Virus record (IMG/VR): IMGVR_UViG_3300040801_001530 | Location: 356-64,355 of that record | Strand: one strand, 5' to 3' | Origin: a virus | DNA: 64,000 nt | Shown: positions 5,755 to 42,397 of the stretch, piece by piece | Layout of the letters: each line of letters opens with the position of its first letter | How positions within the stretch are numbered: position 1 is the first letter of the stretch | Program-made: the position numbers and the translations under genes | The notes under the pieces: model-generated | Database searches by the model: none | The model's input: the letters and a program-made list of their open reading frames with translations, nothing else | Told to the model about the DNA's origin: nothing

Positions 5755-6140
5755 TGAGCACCTATCAATTTGCGGCGGGCTATGATAATGCTGGTAGCCT
5801 GGTTAAAGTATCGATACAACCCAACAGCCCCGGCGTTTTTGCTGGTATCCGACGCACAGCCGGTAACGGTCTAGTATATGAAGATGGTTTTTTAAATAGT
5901 GTTTGGAATTTTGGCTTTTTGCGTGCAAGCGGCAGACAGGTTTATAGCGATTTACTGACGGAGCTAGGGTTGGATAGCGCGGTATCGGTTGAGTGTACTA
6001 TTAAGATGCCAAACAACGTGCGCGTATTTACAAATTATAATGCGGTACTAATAAGGCCGGATGTCGGGCGTGCTATTGATTGGACATTAGGCGCACTTAT
6101 TAATGTGCAATTTGAGCTTATCCGTATGAGTGCATTATGA
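5754..6140 (+). CDS. Putative distal tail (Dit-like) protein
   Basis: 128 aa immediately after the tape measure gene. Confidence 0.4.
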   Translation: MSTYQFAAGYDNAGSLVKVSIQPNSPGVFAGIRRTAGNGLVYEDGFLNSVWNFGFLRASGRQVYSDLLTELGLDSAVSVECTIKMPNNVRVFTNYNAVLIRPDVGRAIDWTLGALINVQFELIRMSAL

Positions 6141-9100
6141 GCCTTGATACTACCAAATGGCGTACCCATCCCCAACGTGCAAACGGCTACCTATATATCC
6201 ATAAGCCCGATGTTGTTTGGGAGACTACGATAGACCAAACAACATTTAGTTATCCGATTGTATCTATAGCACATAGTGGCACTATATCCGGCGACCGTTC
6301 TAACGCCGGTGCCGATCAGACTATCAAGGTATCTTCTAGTGGTGGAATATTTAAGGGCTATATTAGGGCACGTTTTGCGCCTAATGCTAGTACGGTCTCA
6401 ATTAATGCCACAAGTCAAGCGGATATAGACTTTGCTAACGGTGATGTGTTAGAGTTTTTAAGCGAGTATCGCTTGTGGACGCGGATCCCACGTATTGAAG
6501 ACGACGGGACTATTAAAAAAGACTACACTATTACTTATCCCGGTTATACTAGCGAACCGCCACCGGTGCCAAATGCGGGCGGCTACTATGCACAATTCGT
6601 GGATGGTAGCGGTAAAATTACAGTAGACTTTGACGCTTCTAGCTCATTCACCATGACTGGTAACAGTATTAGCTATTTTTGGGATTTTGAGGATGGGACG
6701 CCCGGCACATCGAATAGCGCAACGGTTAATGGGGTATCATTCCCTGCGGGGGCGCGGTGGGTACGGTTACAGGTTGAAGATCTAGGTAGTGGGCGGTCTA
6801 TTAATGCACGTACGCTAGTTGTGGGCATAGACAACAGCACAGTTAGCGCGATACCCGCGCAATTATTGAGCCACACACAAACAGTAGCCGATGGCAATAA
6901 TGTGCAGTTTGGCGTTGCCAGCGGGGACATAGGGCGTATCACAGACATACCCGACGGTGCCATCGTAATCTATTTTGAGGATGAGCATTACGGGGAGAAT
7001 AATGAGAGTTTGACGGGTGAGTCTGGCCGAGAACATGTAAAATTTATCGGCTACATAGACGCTGTTAAAACGGGTATACAGGCTAATCAGGCTGAAGATG
7101 TGATATTGGAGTGCATCGGGCCGTTAGGCGCTTTAAAACGTCTGCCAGCGTACCCACAGGTGTTAGAGTATGTAGATACCTCCACTAGCTGGCTAGAGTA
7201 TGATATAGCGCTAAATTGGTGGTTATTCACACATTACCTACTGTATTGGCATAGCACATTTATTAATATATTTGACATAGAGCGTCCTAGCCATTATAAC
7301 CAATACCCTGTCGTGCGCCTTGAGAGTGTTGGTGGCACGCTCTATGACCAGATGCAAGACATAGCTAAGGCGGTTGGTGGCAATGTTACGGCAAACCGCA
7401 ATGGGCGCTTATTGTTCCGCAAGTGGCCTGTTATGCTATCTAGTGCAGACCGTGCTGCTTTAACACCATCTGTACAGCTAACAACTGATGATTGGTTTGG
7501 GCAAATCGCTATTAATGAGCGACATAGTAATAAGACAGGTTGGCTGCGCTCTAGTGCTATTGTGGCAAGCAATACCGCTATAGTACCGGTTCTAGCTATC
7601 GCGCCGGGTGCTGCGCCGGGACAAGGCCGAGATCAACAGACTTTGACACGTCAATTGGTAGCAAGTCAGGCGGAGCTTAACCAGCGTACAGGCGCTTATT
7701 ACGCTTATCTAAACCGCAACATACAAAACCTGCGCGTTAATGTACTGAACAGGGGCAACGTAGCCGATGCGGCAAATCAAGACTTTATACAACTATTTGC
7801 TGACAGTGCAAGCAATCGGCGCGGCTTGCAGTTTGGCTCATCTGATTACTTTGTGGTTACGCAAGTCGATATTAGCCAAGACCCGCTAACGGGTGTTGGT
7901 GCCGAGGTTTGGACATTAGAGCCGATACCCGCTTATGTGGATGGGGTGACCATTGACATACCCAGCGACGGTACAGACTATAATAGCCAACCCCCCCCAT
8001 CATGGGTTCCTATCCCGTTTGAGGATGTCGCAGAACCAGATTTTGTAGACGACGATATACCTACTGGTACCACAGGCATAGCATTAGCCTGGAACAATCC
8101 GCTAGCCTACACGGCAACGCGGGAGGCACCGGGGTGGTCAAGCATTTGGGCACCGGGCACAGGATTCGATGCCGTACGGTCTGTAGTAGGGGATGAATAT
8201 ACTAGTTTTTATCAGACAGGCGCGGGTGCAGCAGGTGCCTATGGCCTAACAGGAACAAATTTATACTATTGCCCAGATGTTACCGCAGGAAGCCCCGCAT
8301 TTACAAATAAACAAGCATTACTGAGTTACAATCTGCTACGCTTACCACGCGGGGTAAACGGTGGCATCATGGCATATGGTGGTGGCACCTCGTTTATTAT
8401 TAGTAATACATTCGATTTAGTGGACGAGTGGTCTTTTAACAGCACGACGGCGGCGGAGACTGATGGTAGTTTTGCCACAGACGCTAATAAGTCGTATCGT
8501 GTAAAGGTGCGAGGTGACTGGCTATATGATAGCCCTAGCCGTGCAGATGGTCAATATAACAGCCTATTAGGCGATTTTACAGACGCATCACGCAGTAATA
8601 ACATTAGCATTAATTCAACAGCCAATGCGGCTGATAACACAACCTATAATGCAGCCGAGGAAGAATTTATATACTACATTAAAAATTCTGCGGGCAACTG
8701 GACAGAAGTTAATATACTGCAAGGCGTAGACAGTGGTGATTATTACGTAAAGAGTGACAAAACACAAGCCACTATTGAGATTATCATTTTTTTAATGAAG
8801 GAGAGCACGGTCAGGGAAGTTGCGTTTGATTATTGGTTTGATAACCCGGCGAGCCTACTATGTGCCACTGGTATTAACTACCAAATCAATAACCAGACCG
8901 TAGCTGGAGCCAATATATCACGATGGGCGAACGAGGATATTAATATATGCTCCCTCGATGAGAATGAGTGGTATAGTGTTACAGAAGCAGACACAGGGCC
9001 TGATACTAATGTTGGCCGTGTGCGCTTATATATTGCTCTTAAAGCACCTACCACATCTAGTGGGGCTATACGGCTTAAAAATATCAGTATAACAACCGAT

Positions 9101-33261: not shown

Positions 33262-36200
33262 ATGAGCAACAAACGGACGTTAAGAGCGTATGAGCTGCGC
33301 CAACAAGGCTATTCGCAAGCGGCTATAGCGCAACAGTTAGGGGTATCGCAAGCGACGATTAGCCGTGATTTACGCGGGGTAAAGGCCGCTATAGCGGATG
33401 GGCAAGCCACGGGGCCGCCGATAAGCACACAACCCCGCACGATTTGGCCAGACGAACGGCGGCAACGCCAGCTAGGCACCTATATAGGGCCTCTGCGGCG
33501 GGGTGATATTAAGGCGCTTAGTATTCCCGGTATCGAGAAGGGTTACGATTATGTCTCCTTCCACGCAATGGGGGACTATGACAAGCTGCTAGGCTTTGCA
33601 AATGACACCACGTTAGCGCGTGCCTATAACCTATCTATTTGGGCTTACCGTTGCATAGAGGTTTTTGCTAGCTCATTGGCGGGGGTCGATAGGGTAGCGC
33701 ACAAAGCCGATGGGGAACTGTACGAGTTAGATCACTGGCTTAGTCAGTTGGTGGGTATTGCGGCTAATAATACCTTCGCACGGTGGGCGGCAGATCGGCG
33801 TGTATTCGGTACCGCTTACGGGATGCTAGAGCAACAGCCCCACGGCGGCTACCAGCTAGTACGCATTAATCCACAGCTTATTACGCCACTACCGGCGGAG
33901 CGCGGGCAAGGCATAGCCGCCTTTAGTTGGCGGGTTAACGGTGTTGAGGTGGCACGGCTTACCCCGCAAGACTTGCTTTATATGCCGATGTTCAACCCTG
34001 AAGACGACTTCTCTAACCGCGCCCGTTTTGGTGGCATAGCATCCCCATTAGCGCGTGCATTAAGCGCGGTCGAAGCCGACGAGGTACAATGGGCTTATGT
34101 ATTATCGTTCTTTGTTAATGACGCTATGCCCGCGTTTGTGCTAGAGACGGAGCAGCCTGTCATGGCAAGAGAACAAATAGCCGAGTTGCAGTTGGGTTTT
34201 GAGCGTGATTTTAAGGGGATAGAGAATAAGCACAAGCCCTTCGTAGCACATAGTGGGCTAGGCATTAAAGAATTAGGTAGCCCTATGAAGGATCTGATAA
34301 TCCCTGAGTTGCAAGAAGTCACGGTGCGGCGTATTGCGGCGGCTATCGGGGTGCCGTTAACGCTGGCGATGGGCACCGACGCGGCCAACTTCGCCACAAT
34401 GAAGGAGCAGCATACTACATTTTATACCGTTAGTGTGTTGCCAGAACTTAATGCGATACTATCCGACTTGAATAGCCAACTATTACCGCGCCTGCGTGTA
34501 GAGCGTGGGGCACGGGTTGAGGCAGACCGGGGCAGCATTGAGGTATTACAAGAAGATAGGGTCGAGATTACTAGCCGCACCACCGCCGAGTGGCAAGCTG
34601 GGCTGCTTACCTTAGCCGAGGCGCGGGCACGGCTGGGCCTACAACCGCTAGACCGTGATTATATGATGGTCGCAGGCCAGTGGGTAGAGGTATCAGCTAT
34701 TGAGGCGGGGCAATTACCGGAGCCACCGATGCCAGGCGGCGGCGGTTTTGCGGGATTACTTAGTGACATCCCCGACGATGATAGCGCTAGGCTAGATATA
34801 AAAGAGGATGCACGCGGCGCTAGCGTGCTGTTGCGGATAGCCAACCGTGCCGATCTGATTAGCCTCCAGCGTAAGCTAAAGGGACAAGCGGGCGGGGCAG
34901 GCCGTTGGGTAGAGCCAAACGATTTACACATTACATTAGCCATCGCGCCCGATGTTAGCGACAGTCAGTTAGAGCAATTGCGGGCCTGTATCGAGACGTT
35001 AGACTATGAGCCGCTAGCGCTAGCGCTAGGCAGTCTACGCACTTTTGACACACTAGGCGAGTATGCGCTACACTTTAGAATCCGTACAAACCCTGCACTA
35101 ACCGACTTGCAAGCGCAGGTATATAACCTCTTTGAACGCTGTGGTATCGAGACGGTAAGCCACAGCCAACCGGCGCAATACATCCCGCATATTACATTAG
35201 GCTATCTACCAGACAAGCAACGCACATTGCGCTATGATAACCGCCTAACGATTGAGACGGGGCCGCTAGTACTATCGGTTGAAGAAGGTGATGGGTACCG
35301 GGACGTTATCAGCATTAAAGCCGCCTACCACGCGGCTAGGCGCGATTTAGTAAACTGGCATAAGAAGGTGCGCAACCGGGGCGTTAAAGCCGCTTTTAAG
35401 AGTGATGCTATACCCCCCGGTATATTTGCCCATATCCGTATGGAGTTGGCTACATTAGCCCCAGGCGACGATGCTAAGCCCATTTTTGCACATTGGTTGG
35501 ACGCGCTTAAAGCACAGCCCGATGATTTACCCGAAGACATCCCCACCTATCAAGAATTTAGCCGTTATTGGGCTGGTGTGGATGATAGCTTTGATGACAT
35601 AGCCAAAGCCTTCGCTAGTTATCTAGATGAGCAACGCGAGCGGATCCTAGCCCAATTACGGGCGGGTAAAAAACCTGATAAGTTTTTTGGCGATGCTAGC
35701 GAATTAATCGCCATGCTAGCCGGGACGGTAGAGGAGCCGGGGCCTTTGGCTAACGTGTTGCTAGCAGGGTATGCCAGGGGTAACGATATACTAGAGGGTC
35801 GTATAGCCCCCACGCGGCGTATAAAGGCCGAAGACGACGATAACCCCGCGTGGGACGTGGTAATGCCGGAGGCGGTCGATTGGGCACTAGAGTATGCCGC
35901 TAGTCTGGTGTCGGGTGTCAATGACCGCACGCAGCGTGCTATACAGGATACGCTAGCCGGATGGGTCGAGGTGGGAGGTAGCTTTAGCGATCTGGCGTTA
36001 GCGCTAGAGGATAATCTGCTGCAGTTGGATATGCCGCCGGGATGGTCGGGGGCGCGGGCGCGATGGGCTACCAGCCCGCAGCGGGCGGCGCTTATCGCCC
36101 AAACTGAGAGCACCAACATATTTGCCGAGGGGTCTAGGCAACGGTGGAAGGCGGCGGACGTTAAGCAGGTCAAGTGGCGAACGGCTAGAGATGAGCTAGT

Positions 36201-36351
36201 CTGCCCGCTTTGCCGCGCCCTACACAATCAGACCGGGGACATTGACAAGGGGATATACTACAACGGGCCGCATAAGGTGGGCAACCGTACCTATTACACC
36301 CCCGCTGCACATCCTAACTGCCGCTGCTTTTTAGCGCCGGTCGCTAATTAG
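33262..36351 (+). CDS. Portal protein fused to an N-terminal HTH, a 2H phosphoesterase domain and a MuF (SPP1 gp7-like) domain
   Basis: HK97-type portal motifs (FFVNDAMPAFVL, IAAAIGVP); two HxT motifs LHITL (34927) and PHITL (35188); C-terminal WRTARDELVCPLC...AHPNCRC. Confidence 0.8.
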   Translation: MSNKRTLRAYELRQQGYSQAAIAQQLGVSQATISRDLRGVKAAIADGQATGPPISTQPRTIWPDERRQRQLGTYIGPLRRGDIKALSIPGIEKGYDYVSFHAMGDYDKLLGFANDTTLARAYNLSIWAYRCIEVFASSLAGVDRVAHKADGELYELDHWLSQLVGIAANNTFARWAADRRVFGTAYGMLEQQPHGGYQLVRINPQLITPLPAERGQGIAAFSWRVNGVEVARLTPQDLLYMPMFNPEDDFSNRARFGGIASPLARALSAVEADEVQWAYVLSFFVNDAMPAFVLETEQPVMAREQIAELQLGFERDFKGIENKHKPFVAHSGLGIKELGSPMKDLIIPELQEVTVRRIAAAIGVPLTLAMGTDAANFATMKEQHTTFYTVSVLPELNAILSDLNSQLLPRLRVERGARVEADRGSIEVLQEDRVEITSRTTAEWQAGLLTLAEARARLGLQPLDRDYMMVAGQWVEVSAIEAGQLPEPPMPGGGGFAGLLSDIPDDDSARLDIKEDARGASVLLRIANRADLISLQRKLKGQAGGAGRWVEPNDLHITLAIAPDVSDSQLEQLRACIETLDYEPLALALGSLRTFDTLGEYALHFRIRTNPALTDLQAQVYNLFERCGIETVSHSQPAQYIPHITLGYLPDKQRTLRYDNRLTIETGPLVLSVEEGDGYRDVISIKAAYHAARRDLVNWHKKVRNRGVKAAFKSDAIPPGIFAHIRMELATLAPGDDAKPIFAHWLDALKAQPDDLPEDIPTYQEFSRYWAGVDDSFDDIAKAFASYLDEQRERILAQLRAGKKPDKFFGDASELIAMLAGTVEEPGPLANVLLAGYARGNDILEGRIAPTRRIKAEDDDNPAWDVVMPEAVDWALEYAASLVSGVNDRTQRAIQDTLAGWVEVGGSFSDLALALEDNLLQLDMPPGWSGARARWATSPQRAALIAQTESTNIFAEGSRQRWKAADVKQVKWRTARDELVCPLCRALHNQTGDIDKGIYYNGPHKVGNRTYYTPAAHPNCRCFLAPVAN

Positions 36352-39275: not shown

Positions 39276-39363
39276 GTCTTACTATCATCGCGCTCTAAAT
39301 ACAGCGCACACATTTTATCAATTGCCCCTTACACGCTGGTAAGCATGGGGGCTAAAATGTATG

Positions 39364-39436
39364 TTGGCCTGACTGGACTCGAACCAGCAACCTACACTTT
39401 ATGAGAGTGCTGCGCTAACCATTGCGCCACAGGCCA
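39364..39436 (-). tRNA. tRNA with CAT anticodon (Ile2-lysidine or Met)
   Basis: Full cloverleaf: TGGCCTG/CAGGCCA acceptor, GCACT-CTCATAA-AGTGT arm, TTCGAGT T-loop; C4-G69 and C5-G68 favour Ile2. Confidence 0.88.
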
Positions 39437-39437
39437 G

Positions 39438-39519
39438 TTGCCCCGATAGGAGTCGAACCTACACGGCTAATGCCAGCCGCTTCTAAAACGGCTGCGTCTA
39501 CCAGTTCCGCCACGGGGCA
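39438..39519 (-). tRNA. tRNA-Leu(TAG)
   Basis: Class II cloverleaf, GCCGT-TTTAGAA-GCGGC arm, long variable arm, TTCGACT T-loop, A73. Confidence 0.92.
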
Positions 39520-39561
39520 ATGAGGCGATAACTAAGTTTGTCCGCTTTAGTCTATCGCCAG

Positions 39562-39645
39562 TAGGCTTAGTGGGAGTCGAACCCACACGGGAATTACCCC
39601 AACGGTTTTTAAGACCGTCGTGTCTACCAATTCCACCATAAGCCC
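39562..39645 (-). tRNA. tRNA-Leu(TAA)
   Basis: Class II cloverleaf, ACGGT-CTTAAAA-ACCGT arm, TTCGACT T-loop, A73. Confidence 0.92.
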
Positions 39646-39650
39646 ATAAG

Positions 39651-39720
39651 TAGGGCGTGCCGGTTGCGATTCGGCATCTCCCGCGCCAACGCGGGTGCTT
39701 TTACATTAAGCTAACGCCCT
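39651..39720 (-). tRNA. Degenerate tRNA-like gene (TGG/Pro-like, 16-nt anticodon arm, non-canonical T-loop)
   Basis: Perfect 7-bp acceptor AGGGCGT/ACGCCCT, D-arm GCTT/AAGC, arm CCCGCGTTGGCGCGGG, T-loop ATCGCAA. Confidence 0.55.
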
Positions 39721-39852
39721 CGCCGGTATTTTATAGCGCCCCGCTGCGTCGGCGCTTATTAATAACACCCCGTCGGGTTTTACCGTCGTCACGGCAAAGG
39801 GTTGTGTTTGTGTATCTATAAAAGGGCAAACAACCTCTATCTGAAGCCCCTT

Positions 39853-39921
39853 AAAGCATTGTCGGGATTGAACCGACCACCTCCGCATAGAGCGGCGTAA
39901 TCACCAGATTACTTAATGCCT
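39853..39921 (-). tRNA. Aberrant tRNA-like gene with shortened anticodon arm centred on CTA
   Basis: Acceptor AGGCATT/AATGCTT, D-arm GTAA/TTAC with GG, T-arm GTCGG-TTCAATC-CCGAC, arm CCGC-TCTAT-GCGG. Confidence 0.6.
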
Positions 39922-39973
39922 TCGTAAAGCATCGACACGCCCCATATGTGAGGCTATGTTTATATACAAAACA

Positions 39974-40002
39974 ACTATATCACATCCCGGCGGACTTGTC
40001 AA
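39974..40002 (-). promoter_or_regulatory. Sigma70 promoter for the tRNA cluster, overlapping the last codons of iscB
   Basis: TTGACA-17 nt-TATAGT on the minus strand. Confidence 0.7.
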
Positions 40003-41335
40003 GGGCTGTGTCATGTTTAACAACGATATGCCCTATAGAGCGCTGTAGAACGGTGCAAGCGCTAGGGGATGCGCTGTGTCGTTGCCCGCGTCTATCTGTG
40101 ATGCTAAACCCGCCCTTAGCACGCCAACTGGTAACAAACCCCGTGAATGTGGTACCATCGCGCTTAATCACCCTGACAAAATCACGTGCTCTAATTCCAT
40201 CTCTCGTTTTTGCGCGGGCCTTCGGCTTTGCGCGGGGGAACCCGAATTTATCCGGTTTGCACGCTTGCCTGCTGCCACGGGCTTTGGCAATAATCAACTT
40301 AGGCACGATAGAGCGCGGTATAATAATCTTTGAGCCTATCGCCCCCACGCAGGCCGCGTCTATCCAATGGTCTTTAGGATACCCGGCTAAGGTACGATTA
40401 TATTTAGTAAGCGCCCCCGTGCCCAACTCTACGATTAGCCCCGATGCCTCTAGCCGTTCCCGTAACACAATGCGTGTAGCATTTACAGCCGCCATATCCC
40501 GCATAGATAGCCCCCGCTGTGCTTTTGCTTGCAGCGCGGGGTGTCCAAACTCGTCTGCGGTATTATTACCCTTGCGCTGGTTGCATGGCCCGCAGGCTAT
40601 TGCTAGATTATCAATCCGATTAGAGCCACCGCGCGATTTAGGGACAATATGCTCAATCTGTAGGGGTACGTTTGCGGCACCGCAATAGGCGCACTTCCTA
40701 CCCCACTTCTCTAACAGATATTCCCTAACCTCGTACCCCGCTAGTGTGCCCTGCTGGTATTCCACACCACTAATTGCAGGGTTGGCCATTAGTTGAGTAT
40801 CAAACTTAACATCCTCTAGCGCGTTGTGCTCATAGCCTGTATAACGCCATACACGCTCCGCCCAAACCATAGTATTATCCAAGCGGCTACGCATAGAGGG
40901 CGCAAGCCAACCCTTCGGCACCATGCGACGGTAGGTGATTTTACCTGCCCGCTTATTTGCGCCTAGCACCTCACCAGCACGGGGCCGCCACGGGCGATAG
41001 CGCAGGTTAGCTGTACGGCGGCGGCGACGGTATCCGCTACGATCTTTTAAATGCTTGACCACTACACTAGCCCGGTGTTCGAGATTTGCGCCCCATACGA
41101 CAGTAGGCCCGCGCTTAAAATCAGCTACCAACGCTATACCCGTTGTTTTGCTGCCGGGATCTATTTTGTATTGCATGGCTTGCTTATGGCCGCCTTCGTG
41201 GTCTTTTAATATGATGGTAAATGGCGTGTGGCGATAAACCGCCGCCTTACCATCACGCAACAGCTTACGCGCCCGTGCCGGTTGACATGGCATTAAGGGC
41301 TGCTTATGTTTGTCTAGTACAAAAACACGGCTCAT
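39980..41335 (-). CDS. iscB: IscB RNA-guided endonuclease (PLMP, split RuvC, bridge helix, HNH)
   Basis: VFVLDKHKQPLMPC (PLMP); IDPGSKTTG (RuvC-I); RRRRRTANLRYR bridge helix; LEDVKFDTQ (RuvC-II); EHIVPKSRGGSNRIDNLAIACGPCNQRKG (HNH); HWIDAACV (RuvC-III). Confidence 0.97.
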   Translation of the reverse strand: MSRVFVLDKHKQPLMPCQPARARKLLRDGKAAVYRHTPFTIILKDHEGGHKQAMQYKIDPGSKTTGIALVADFKRGPTVVWGANLEHRASVVVKHLKDRSGYRRRRRTANLRYRPWRPRAGEVLGANKRAGKITYRRMVPKGWLAPSMRSRLDNTMVWAERVWRYTGYEHNALEDVKFDTQLMANPAISGVEYQQGTLAGYEVREYLLEKWGRKCAYCGAANVPLQIEHIVPKSRGGSNRIDNLAIACGPCNQRKGNNTADEFGHPALQAKAQRGLSMRDMAAVNATRIVLRERLEASGLIVELGTGALTKYNRTLAGYPKDHWIDAACVGAIGSKIIIPRSIVPKLIIAKARGSRQACKPDKFGFPRAKPKARAKTRDGIRARDFVRVIKRDGTTFTGFVTSWRAKGGFSITDRRGQRHSASPSACTVLQRSIGHIVVKHDTALDKSAGM

Positions 41336-41369
41336 AGCCTACCCTTCTATGTGATTGGTGTATATTACA

Positions 41370-41695
41370 AAAATGCCGTAGAGTTGCGTAACCCCACGGC
41401 ATTTTGTGCCACTGTAAAATGGCCACTCCTAGCCGCTTACGCGGCATCGGGTAAAGGTCTCCTTGGCAATGTTATGCACGGTTTATCGCTAACAGCACTT
41501 CGCTAAGCGGGTTACGATGTTTAACTGTTGAGCCGTATTTTACCCAGACTGGAGAAGCATCCGGGGATACCTATATATTCGCACATAACGTAGGCTATTT
41601 AGCGTTTATGGCGCTATTCGCCTTAGCCGGGATGCAGTGGTATTGTAAACGTTTTGGGGTTACAATACCCCCACGGCGTGGGGCCGCTCTGCAAC
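41370..41695 (-). ncRNA. Omega RNA (HEARO-type) scaffold fused to the terminal CRISPR repeat
   Basis: Minus strand CTACGTTATGTGCGAATATATAGGTATCCCCGGATGCTTCTCCAGTCTGGG...TAAACA...CATAACATTGCCAAGGAGACCTTTACCCG matches the recalled IscB omega RNA core; 3' hairpin 41371-41404; ends approximate. Confidence 0.85.
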
Positions 41696-41829
41696 AAACG
41701 CGATACCATAAATGAGTTACAATACCCCCACGGCGTGGGGCCGCTCTGCAACTTTAGCAAATCGAGCTTTGCCCTTATCGTTTGAGGATTACAATACCCC
41801 CCCCACACGGCGTAGGGCCACGCTAGAAC
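41659..41829 (-). CRISPR. Mini CRISPR array: two identical 37-nt repeats, one degenerate repeat, two spacers (20 and 35 nt)
   Basis: Repeat GTTGCAGAGCGGCCCCACGCCGTGGGGGTATTGTAAC at 41659-41695 and 41716-41752; degenerate copy 41788-41829; spacers 41696-41715 and 41753-41787. Confidence 0.88.
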
Positions 41830-41835
41830 ACACTA

Positions 41836-41864
41836 AGTGTATCATGCATCACGTCTCTTGTCAA
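41836..41864 (-). promoter_or_regulatory. Sigma70 promoter driving array-omegaRNA-iscB
   Basis: TTGACA-17 nt-TACACT; predicted start ~41829-41830, at the first repeat; overlaps a divergent TTGTCA-17-TAAACT (41858-41886). Confidence 0.8.
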
Positions 41865-41920
41865 GGGTTAGATTATATGGTAAACTTTTAGCATATCTAA
41901 AGGATAAGGAAGCGAACAAG

Positions 41921-42397
41921 ATGTTATTTAAACCTGAATTAGTGGCTAAGGTATTAGAAGGCCAAAAGACGCAAACGCGGCGGCTTTGGCGCGAAGGCGA
42001 TATGGCAATAAAAGCGGGGCTGCTTTACGAACAGACAGAAGACAGCCCTATTAAATTTGTTCGTCGCGTAACTAAGTCTGGCAAAACCCGTATGCATCGG
42101 GCTGTTAAATCTGACTACGCACTCCAGCCGGGGCGGGGTAAGCCAGGCGTGGCACGTATCCGTCTAGATGCCATCCGCTTAGAACACTTGCAAGACATCA
42201 CACAGCAAGACGCGCAAGCCGAGGGCTTTGCCGGTGTTGACGAGTTTAAAAGCTATTGGGATATGATTAACAACCGCGCTGGTGTGCGATGGGTTGATAA
42301 CCCTAGGGTGTGGGTTTTGGATTTTACGGTAGTAGAGCGTGCCGCCGAGGATGTGCTAGCGGCGCTTGCGCATAATCTGGCGGAGCGTAATGAATGA
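41921..42397 (+). CDS. ASCH-domain protein
   Basis: MLFKPELVAKVLEGQKTQTRR...LQDITQQDAQAEGF...NPRVWVLDF. Confidence 0.8.
   Translation: MLFKPELVAKVLEGQKTQTRRLWREGDMAIKAGLLYEQTEDSPIKFVRRVTKSGKTRMHRAVKSDYALQPGRGKPGVARIRLDAIRLEHLQDITQQDAQAEGFAGVDEFKSYWDMINNRAGVRWVDNPRVWVLDFTVVERAAEDVLAALAHNLAERNE

Follow-up and report, generated by a model that had tools for sequence, protein, structure and literature searches.

IscB nucleases associated with CRISPR arrays were described in 2021 (Altae-Tran et al., Science 374:57, as cited in PMC12660989 and PMC10734217). One of them, DelIscB, a protein of 457 aa with the target-adjacent motif (TAM) NAC and a 16-nt guide, has been characterized and engineered (PMC12660989). 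Its non-coding RNA combines repeats, spacers, an anti-repeat hairpin and an omega scaffold, and is experimentally active (PMC12660989; summarized in PMC10734217). For the IscB and TnpB proteins of transposons, RNA-guided self-inheritance is an established role (PMC10055086), and one survey found viruses or prophages to be the source of more than 16% of its HEARO/IscB contigs (PMC9755519). Here we describe an iscB locus on a 64,000-nucleotide stretch of viral DNA (the window; positions 356 to 64,355 of IMG/VR virus record IMGVR_UViG_3300040801_001530), where a very small repeat-spacer array runs directly into the omega RNA upstream of the nuclease gene.

The window makes up nearly all of the 64,579-bp record, which has a CheckV completeness of 82% and carries phage genes for a large terminase, a portal-MuF fusion, a major head protein, a tape measure protein, DnaB and another helicase. 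We consider it probable that the locus belongs to the CRISPR-associated IscB kind, here carried by a phage. On the minus strand, a promoter-like site is followed by a repeat (R1), a spacer (S1), a second repeat (R2), a second spacer (S2) and a third repeat (R3) that is at the same time the start of the omega RNA, and then by iscB:

41864 to 41836, minus strand: sigma-70-like promoter TTGACA-17-TACACT with an upstream TG, from a consensus scan only
41829 to 41788, minus strand: degenerate repeat R1, 42 nt, with 31 of 37 repeat positions kept and a 5-nt insertion
41787 to 41753, minus strand: spacer S1, 35 nt, unique
41752 to 41716, minus strand: exact repeat R2, 37 nt, 100% (37/37) identical to R3
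41715 to 41696, minus strand: spacer S2, 20 nt, immediately 5' of the omega RNA scaffold, where the guide lies
41695 to 41659, minus strand: exact repeat R3, 37 nt, equal to omega RNA scaffold nt 1-37
41689 to 41451, minus strand: omega RNA core, a match to Rfam HEARO (RF02033), model positions 1-211, 65.1 bits, E 4.6e-12
41648 to 41633, minus strand: cis anti-repeat, TTACAATACC and then CTGCA, where TTACAATACC pairs with GGTATTGTAA and CTGCA pairs with TGCAG
41407 to 41367, minus strand: terminator-like long hairpin with a U-run (z -4.67), the omega RNA 3' end, 30 nt before the iscB start codon
41335 to 39980, minus strand: iscB, 451 aa, an intact open reading frame (ORF) with Pfam RRXRR (7e-55) and HNH matches

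The original prediction, made from the letters of the window, had described this same unit with its 35-nt and 20-nt spacers, a full set of RuvC and HNH catalytic motifs in IscB, a lytic-looking phage as the carrier and CRISPR-linked IscB as a known subclass. The unit lies where it had been placed, and the catalytic motifs are all present. The terminase, portal, capsid, tape measure and DnaB genes bear out the phage; the lytic look agrees with a record in which no integrase or resolvase was found at 82% completeness, and the subclass is the one that DelIscB represents in the literature.

The Pfam RRXRR match spans residues 4-196 of the IscB protein, and the HNH domain is recovered by both HNH_5 (1.5e-13) and HNH (3.4e-12). 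In an alignment with 16 relatives, the PLMP motif (residues 13-16), the arginine-rich bridge helix RRRRR (103-107), D59 of RuvC-I, E174 of RuvC-II and H323/D326 of RuvC-III are invariant, and so are C215/C218/H229/N243/C248/C251 of the HNH domain, which is inserted in RuvC. The catalytic residues align with D61/E193/H247/H340/D343 of OgeuIscB, and the C-terminus holds a TAM-interaction region. The protein is without a recognition (REC) lobe, and its 451 aa compare with 415-481 aa in relatives. The best solved relatives are TbaIscB, OgeuIscB and HfmIscB, while the match to Cas9d is limited to the HNH region. Judged by its domains, residues, size and the omega RNA upstream on the same strand, the predicted protein belongs to the IscB family. 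Relative to the consensus of 15 relatives, it carries an insertion of ~18 residues between the RYRP motif of the bridge helix and PKGWL (residues ~115-139; 40919-40993).

The HEARO match is complete, lies in the correct orientation directly before the nuclease gene and retains all of the family's conserved single-stranded motifs; the covariance-model check that the original prediction had proposed returned a full-length match, with a score under the Rfam gathering score. R3 passes into this match without a break. In the Rfam alignment, R3 provides the 5' strand of the outer stem (TGCAG), a complete hairpin (CCCCAC-GCC-GTGGGG) and the 5' strand of hairpin 2 (GGTATTGTAA), and an 11-nt loop separates it from its partner strands in the anti-repeat. 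The repeat coincides exactly with scaffold nt 1-37, and its boundary falls in a hairpin loop. The 5' end of the omega RNA was taken from the Rfam alignment; a MAFFT alignment of omega RNAs misplaced it.

R2 and R3 are equally complementary to the anti-repeat (10/10 + 5/5), which lies 11 nt from R3 and 68 nt from R2. Constrained folds gave -156.0 kcal/mol with R3 paired to the anti-repeat and -155.2 kcal/mol with R2 paired; the near-equality of these predicted energies says only that the alternative pairing is not forbidden. The unconstrained minimum free energy structure of the 454-nt transcript, which pairs R1 with the 3' end, was treated as uninformative. R1 retains the GGTATTGTAA segment and has lost the outer-stem segment TGCAG, and the predicted start site of the array promoter, near 41829, is its first base. 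The array is at minimal size, with two exact 37-nt repeats, one degenerate copy, and spacers of 35 and 20 nt whose sequences are unrelated to each other. The repeat core had no match elsewhere in IMG/VR or the JGI metagenomes.

The locus is near-identical to contigs of public sequencing runs from one microbial-mat sample, and we placed the Logan contigs of two DNA and two metatranscriptome runs on positions 39800-42000. The arrangement of S2 between two repeats was seen independently, and with no mismatches, in Logan unitigs of two DNA and two RNA runs, as a loop unitig of 87 nt (57 + k-1). Its presence in separate runs means that this part of the array is not an artefact of one assembly.

The RNA runs also show what is transcribed. 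Two RNA unitigs, 41376..41688 (depth 11.8) and 41385..41688 (depth 9.5), correspond to the omega RNA up to the terminator-like hairpin, and the 87-nt RNA unitig, 41659..41745 (depth 8-9; runs X3 and X4), covers the 3' 30 nt of R2, then S2 and R3. Branch points of the k=31 graph at the 37-nt repeat, and not RNA ends, account for the breaks at 41688 and 41745. No iscB mRNA was detected in these runs, with an RNA depth of zero over the whole ORF; in the DNA runs, parts of the ORF have a depth of about 3x, which argues against DNA carry-over as the source of the RNA signal. The locus yields a discrete, stable RNA of roughly 340-380 nt that starts in or just upstream of R2 and continues through S2, R3 and the scaffold to the terminator-like hairpin. 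In situ, the omega RNA with R2 (at least 30 nt), S2 and R3 far exceeds iscB mRNA.

Upstream of R2, the RNA evidence stops. Of the words sampled from 41376-41864, three RNA runs contain fractions of 0.76, 0.73 and 0.71, and the part 41376-41752 accounts for 0.76. It follows that the contigs of these three metatranscriptome runs do not include S1, R1 or the promoter region. The 5' end of the RNA arises either from a transcript of the upstream promoter that is trimmed back to R2, or from a start near the S1/R2 junction, where an extended -10-like motif, TGCTAAAGT, can be read from the sequence. The RNA contigs are without the first ~77 nt of the predicted transcript of the array promoter, so that promoter is a putative one. 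They contain S2 and not S1, so expression is shown for one guide and not for the second. The original prediction of a two-guide nuclease is to this extent not borne out: only the 20-nt spacer appears in environmental RNA.

Among 5.8 billion proteins, the nearest relatives of the window IscB are 54-55% identical, and many come from metagenome-assembled genomes (MAGs) of Chloroflexota. Ten loci of the closest proteins have a HEARO RNA and no repeats; the nearest relative of all belongs to an ordinary IscB element that lies between cytochrome genes of a bacterium. IscB homologues also occur in cultured Ralstonia, Microcoleus and Nodularia phages. Arrays were found at 15 of 80 further viral IscB loci in IMG/VR:

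Upstream arrays of 2-4 repeats that end at or near the omega RNA: L051 (1109-1300), L042 (1092-1290) and L096 (930-1300)
Downstream arrays: L075, L081-L083, L085, L091, L092, L095, L097 and L101-L103

The long downstream arrays stand directly after iscB in a well-supported clade of viral IscBs that are 44-45% identical to the window IscB. Their repeats are 36 nt long (GTTAATGATTGTATTGGTTCTTGACTGACTTGATAC and variants) and number up to 17 or more, and their spacers differ between contigs. In the upstream array of L051, the first 37 nt of the HEARO RNA occur three times, with spacers of 35-36 nt; the last repeat extends from exactly HEARO position 1 into the hairpin-2 loop, and a short anti-repeat comes next. 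The upstream arrays of L042 and L096 likewise have an anti-repeat, which in L096 is full-length and lies about 35 nt past the last repeat, nearer to the published description of DelIscB. Two other viral contigs of ~100 kb (L005 and L006) have two full HEARO RNAs 3.3 kb apart (2742-2957 and 6080-6295), which suggests two IscB-type elements side by side.

In a maximum-likelihood tree of 34 proteins, the window IscB pairs with the IscB of an array-less locus, L033 (support 96/97). The IscBs of L051, L042 and L096 fall in a clade (support 100/98) that does not include the window IscB and in which they are mixed with array-less loci. Forcing the four upstream-array IscBs together made the tree 97 log-likelihood units worse (approximately unbiased (AU) test, p 2e-5, a value that is somewhat generous because a quick first tree preceded the definition of the group). 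Four changes of the upstream-array label are required on the tree, so omega-fused arrays are sporadic, by repeated gain or by repeated loss. Taken together, the tree and the AU test suggest that arrays on IscB omega RNAs arise repeatedly.

We searched for DNA that the two spacers might match. The original prediction had proposed competing elements or host genes as targets, and these searches of the window, IMG/VR, the JGI metagenomes and the GTDB genomes brought no support for it. Within the window, S1 and S2 match only themselves with up to 3 mismatches allowed, and for neither spacer was there a seed of at least 11 nt or a meaningful 16-mer match with up to 3 mismatches. In IMG/VR, the S2 20-mer had no exact match and the middle 19-mer of S1 had 0 matches. 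Shorter cores gave 10 matches (S2 16-mer) and 3 matches (S1 18-mer) there; none extends past the searched core, and we regard them as chance. The same holds for two exact S2 matches in GTDB (one genome per species), which lie in unrelated genes of a Thermodesulfobacteriota MAG and a Leuconostoc genome. Two further exact S2 matches, in the JGI metagenomes, are allelic contigs from one unrelated sample. Whichever stop codons are assumed, these contigs contain no long ORF, and beyond the spacer they do not resemble the window; both matches were also treated as chance.

If the locus works as its described relatives do, IscB would bind the omega RNA with S2 as the guide, as suggested by the OgeuIscB structures and the biochemistry of DelIscB (PMC12660989). 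Double-stranded DNA that matches S2 would then be cut beside a TAM, the target strand by HNH and the other strand by RuvC, as in OgeuIscB and DelIscB. The array itself would probably be spared, since the sequence that comes after each spacer is the repeat (GTTGCAG...) rather than a TAM. S1 could act as a second guide if R2, instead of R3, paired with the single anti-repeat. The phage might use such a nuclease against a rival element or host DNA in the infected cell, or for selfish inheritance.

Several results weigh against assigning the locus to the CRISPR-associated IscB kind. Six-frame searches, whose positive controls gave matches, found no Y1 TnpA (PF01797), tyrosine integrase, serine recombinase/resolvase, Cas1 or Cas2 in the 64.6-kb, 82%-complete record, and the adaptation genes Cas1 and Cas2 are the ones that count here. 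The HEARO score of 65.1 bits lies below the Rfam gathering score of 83. The RNA evidence consists of assembled unitigs from one sample, probably the contig's own source, rather than of reads with mapped ends, and S1 and R1 were not seen in the RNA contigs of the three metatranscriptome runs. With two spacers, one genome and a repeat found nowhere else, spacer turnover cannot be shown, and no credible protospacer for S1 or S2 was found in the window, IMG/VR, the JGI metagenomes or the GTDB genomes.

The leading rival explanation is a single-guide omega RNA, in which S2 is the sole guide and R1-S1-R2 is a decaying relic of earlier duplications or a 5' leader with a GC hairpin that stabilizes the RNA, so that the array would not function with several guides. 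The RNA contigs, with their 30 nt of R2 followed by S2, R3 and the omega RNA, and without S1 and R1, lean toward this explanation, as does the degenerate R1 with its lost outer-stem segment. The anti-repeat is much nearer R3 (11 nt) than R2 (68 nt), transcription might begin inside R2 from the possible extended -10 TGCTAAAGT at the S1/R2 junction, and a 10 + 5 bp duplex would be too short for RNase III-type processing. Free decay, however, would not be expected to leave R2 identical to R3 at 37 of 37 positions. The 35-nt length of S1 matches the spacers of the L051 array, and upstream sets of 3-4 repeats or long downstream arrays are found at other viral IscB loci. Moreover, unitigs drop rare words, so a minor S1-bearing RNA would be missed. 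On balance, we regard the single-guide explanation as a serious one that is nevertheless doubtful. The locus might instead be a selfish homing element, an IS200/IS605-type passenger without TnpA whose guide matches the empty site in related phages and which is copied by cleavage and recombination. Self-inheritance of this type is what transposon IscB and TnpB are known for (PMC10055086), the unit sits in a variable region rich in HNH and EndoVII endonucleases, methyltransferases and tRNAs, and the element most closely related to it is an ordinary IscB element within a cytochrome gene cluster of a bacterium. Yet TnpA was not found on the record, no phage or metagenome contig has a credible S1 or S2 match that could be the empty site, and the neighbouring gene has no IMG/VR relative for comparison; the guide of such an element would be expected to equal the phage flank, whereas here it is flanked by another repeat. 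We find homing unlikely.

That the repeats are an assembly artefact, an outcome that the original prediction had named as fatal to it, is scarcely credible. The loop unitig with S2 between two repeats occurs, mismatch-free, in two DNA and two RNA runs, and R3 is integral to the HEARO fold, so this half of the array has been upheld. R1 and S1, on the other hand, come from a single source, the IMG/VR assembly; the Logan DNA contigs skip 41753-41871, where coverage is about 3x. A bolder idea is that the locus is an independently born proto-CRISPR at the two-spacer stage. Copies of a guide plus scaffold nt 1-37 would have been stacked without Cas1/Cas2 in a phage IscB lineage with otherwise plain omega RNAs, and the one unprocessed transcript would switch between two guides as its single anti-repeat pairs with R2 or with the identical R3, a processing-free intermediate between a single-guide omega RNA and a crRNA:tracrRNA pair. 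We consider it quite improbable. A phage-borne CRISPR-associated IscB thus remains our preferred reading.

Around the unit, the neighbours of iscB are an ASCH-like gene, several HNH/endonuclease VII genes, two DNA methyltransferases, a PAPS-reductase-like gene and a tRNA cluster. The adjoining segment 42394-46105 is densely packed with an endonuclease VII-like gene, two HNH endonucleases, a C5 cytosine methyltransferase-like gene and an MT-A70 methyltransferase. Back to back with the minus-strand array promoter stands a promoter-like site of the plus strand, TTGTCA-17-TAAACT with a TG (41858-41886); given its position, the ASCH-like gene probably starts at ATG 41920 and not at the GTG 41837 chosen by the ORF finder. 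Comparison with sister phages yielded no synteny: the ASCH-like neighbour gene has no relative in IMG/VR, and a DNA search against cultured phages matched tRNAs only. Elsewhere on the record, the portal match (residues 113-470) and a head-morphogenesis/MuF-like C-terminal domain (residues about 850-1027) form a single ORF of 1029 aa (33262-36351). On the other side of iscB lie two further features:

40002 to 39974, minus strand: near-consensus promoter TTGACA-17-TATAGT before the tRNA cluster, overlapping the end of the iscB ORF
39363 to 39922, minus strand: tRNA cluster just downstream of iscB

ARAGORN called tRNAs for Met, Leu(TAG) and Leu(TAA) and one with a CUA anticodon (amber suppressor) at 39852-39922. 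The Rfam tRNA model did not report the CUA tRNA at E<=1 and added a tRNA at 39651-39720 that ARAGORN had missed. Part of this region (39800-39934) was found in RNA contigs. Stop-codon recoding, at which the CUA tRNA hints, was rejected: TAG closes 15 of 57 long ORFs, and reading through it brings no specific gain.

IscB is the small ancestor of Cas9, and among present-day systems CRISPR-associated IscBs give the closest picture of how the guide RNA of a transposon became a CRISPR array plus a tracrRNA. To this picture the locus adds the smallest form of the design, unit boundaries set exactly by the omega fold, and expression data from the environment. Lying in a lineage with array-less relatives, it is also a data point for the repeated birth of arrays without adaptation genes. 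In practical terms, it offers a compact nuclease of 451 aa with a natural single-guide layout. The locus opens no new category, and its distinctive points are modest.

The kind is rare but already known: CRISPR-associated IscB has been published, as have IscBs in viruses, and the locus is not new in kind. With type II CRISPR-Cas9, including the compact II-D Cas9d, it shares an HNH-split RuvC and a repeat/anti-repeat pairing of the crRNA/tracrRNA type; unlike type II Cas9, it has no REC lobe and no cas1/cas2, and its anti-repeat lies in the same transcript as the array. It differs from an autonomous IS200/IS605 transposon in that no Y1 TnpA was found on the 82%-complete record. With canonical IscB-omega elements (OgeuIscB, PDB 7XHT and 7UTN; KraIscB) it has in common the protein family, the catalytic residues, the upstream HEARO RNA and a guide placed 5' of the scaffold. 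Canonical IscBs of the IS200/IS605 type have one flank-derived guide and no repeats, whereas the phage locus has three copies of scaffold nt 1-37 with unique spacers and a hairpin 2 extended to 10 bp, on a record without TnpA. Among viral loci, L051 has the same RNA design with a different repeat sequence: its repeat is also the first 37 nt of the omega RNA, and its unit also ends in the hairpin-2 loop. The other viral array loci, upstream and downstream, have IscBs in other clades that are 44-47% identical to that of the window, and several have many more spacers.

Among the closest described systems is DelIscB, to which the phage locus is likened by published description, not by sequence. 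Unlike DelIscB, the unit sits on a tailed phage and has array-less nearest relatives, with just two spacers of unequal length (35 and 20 nt); in place of the long repeat/anti-repeat duplex of DelIscB, it has 10 + 5 bp around a hairpin. Like DelIscB, it encodes a small IscB without a REC lobe (451 versus 457 aa), preceded by a non-coding RNA with repeats, spacers, an anti-repeat paired with the last repeat in a hairpin, and an omega scaffold. By analogy with the activity of DelIscB, the phage system would likewise not need adaptation genes to be active.

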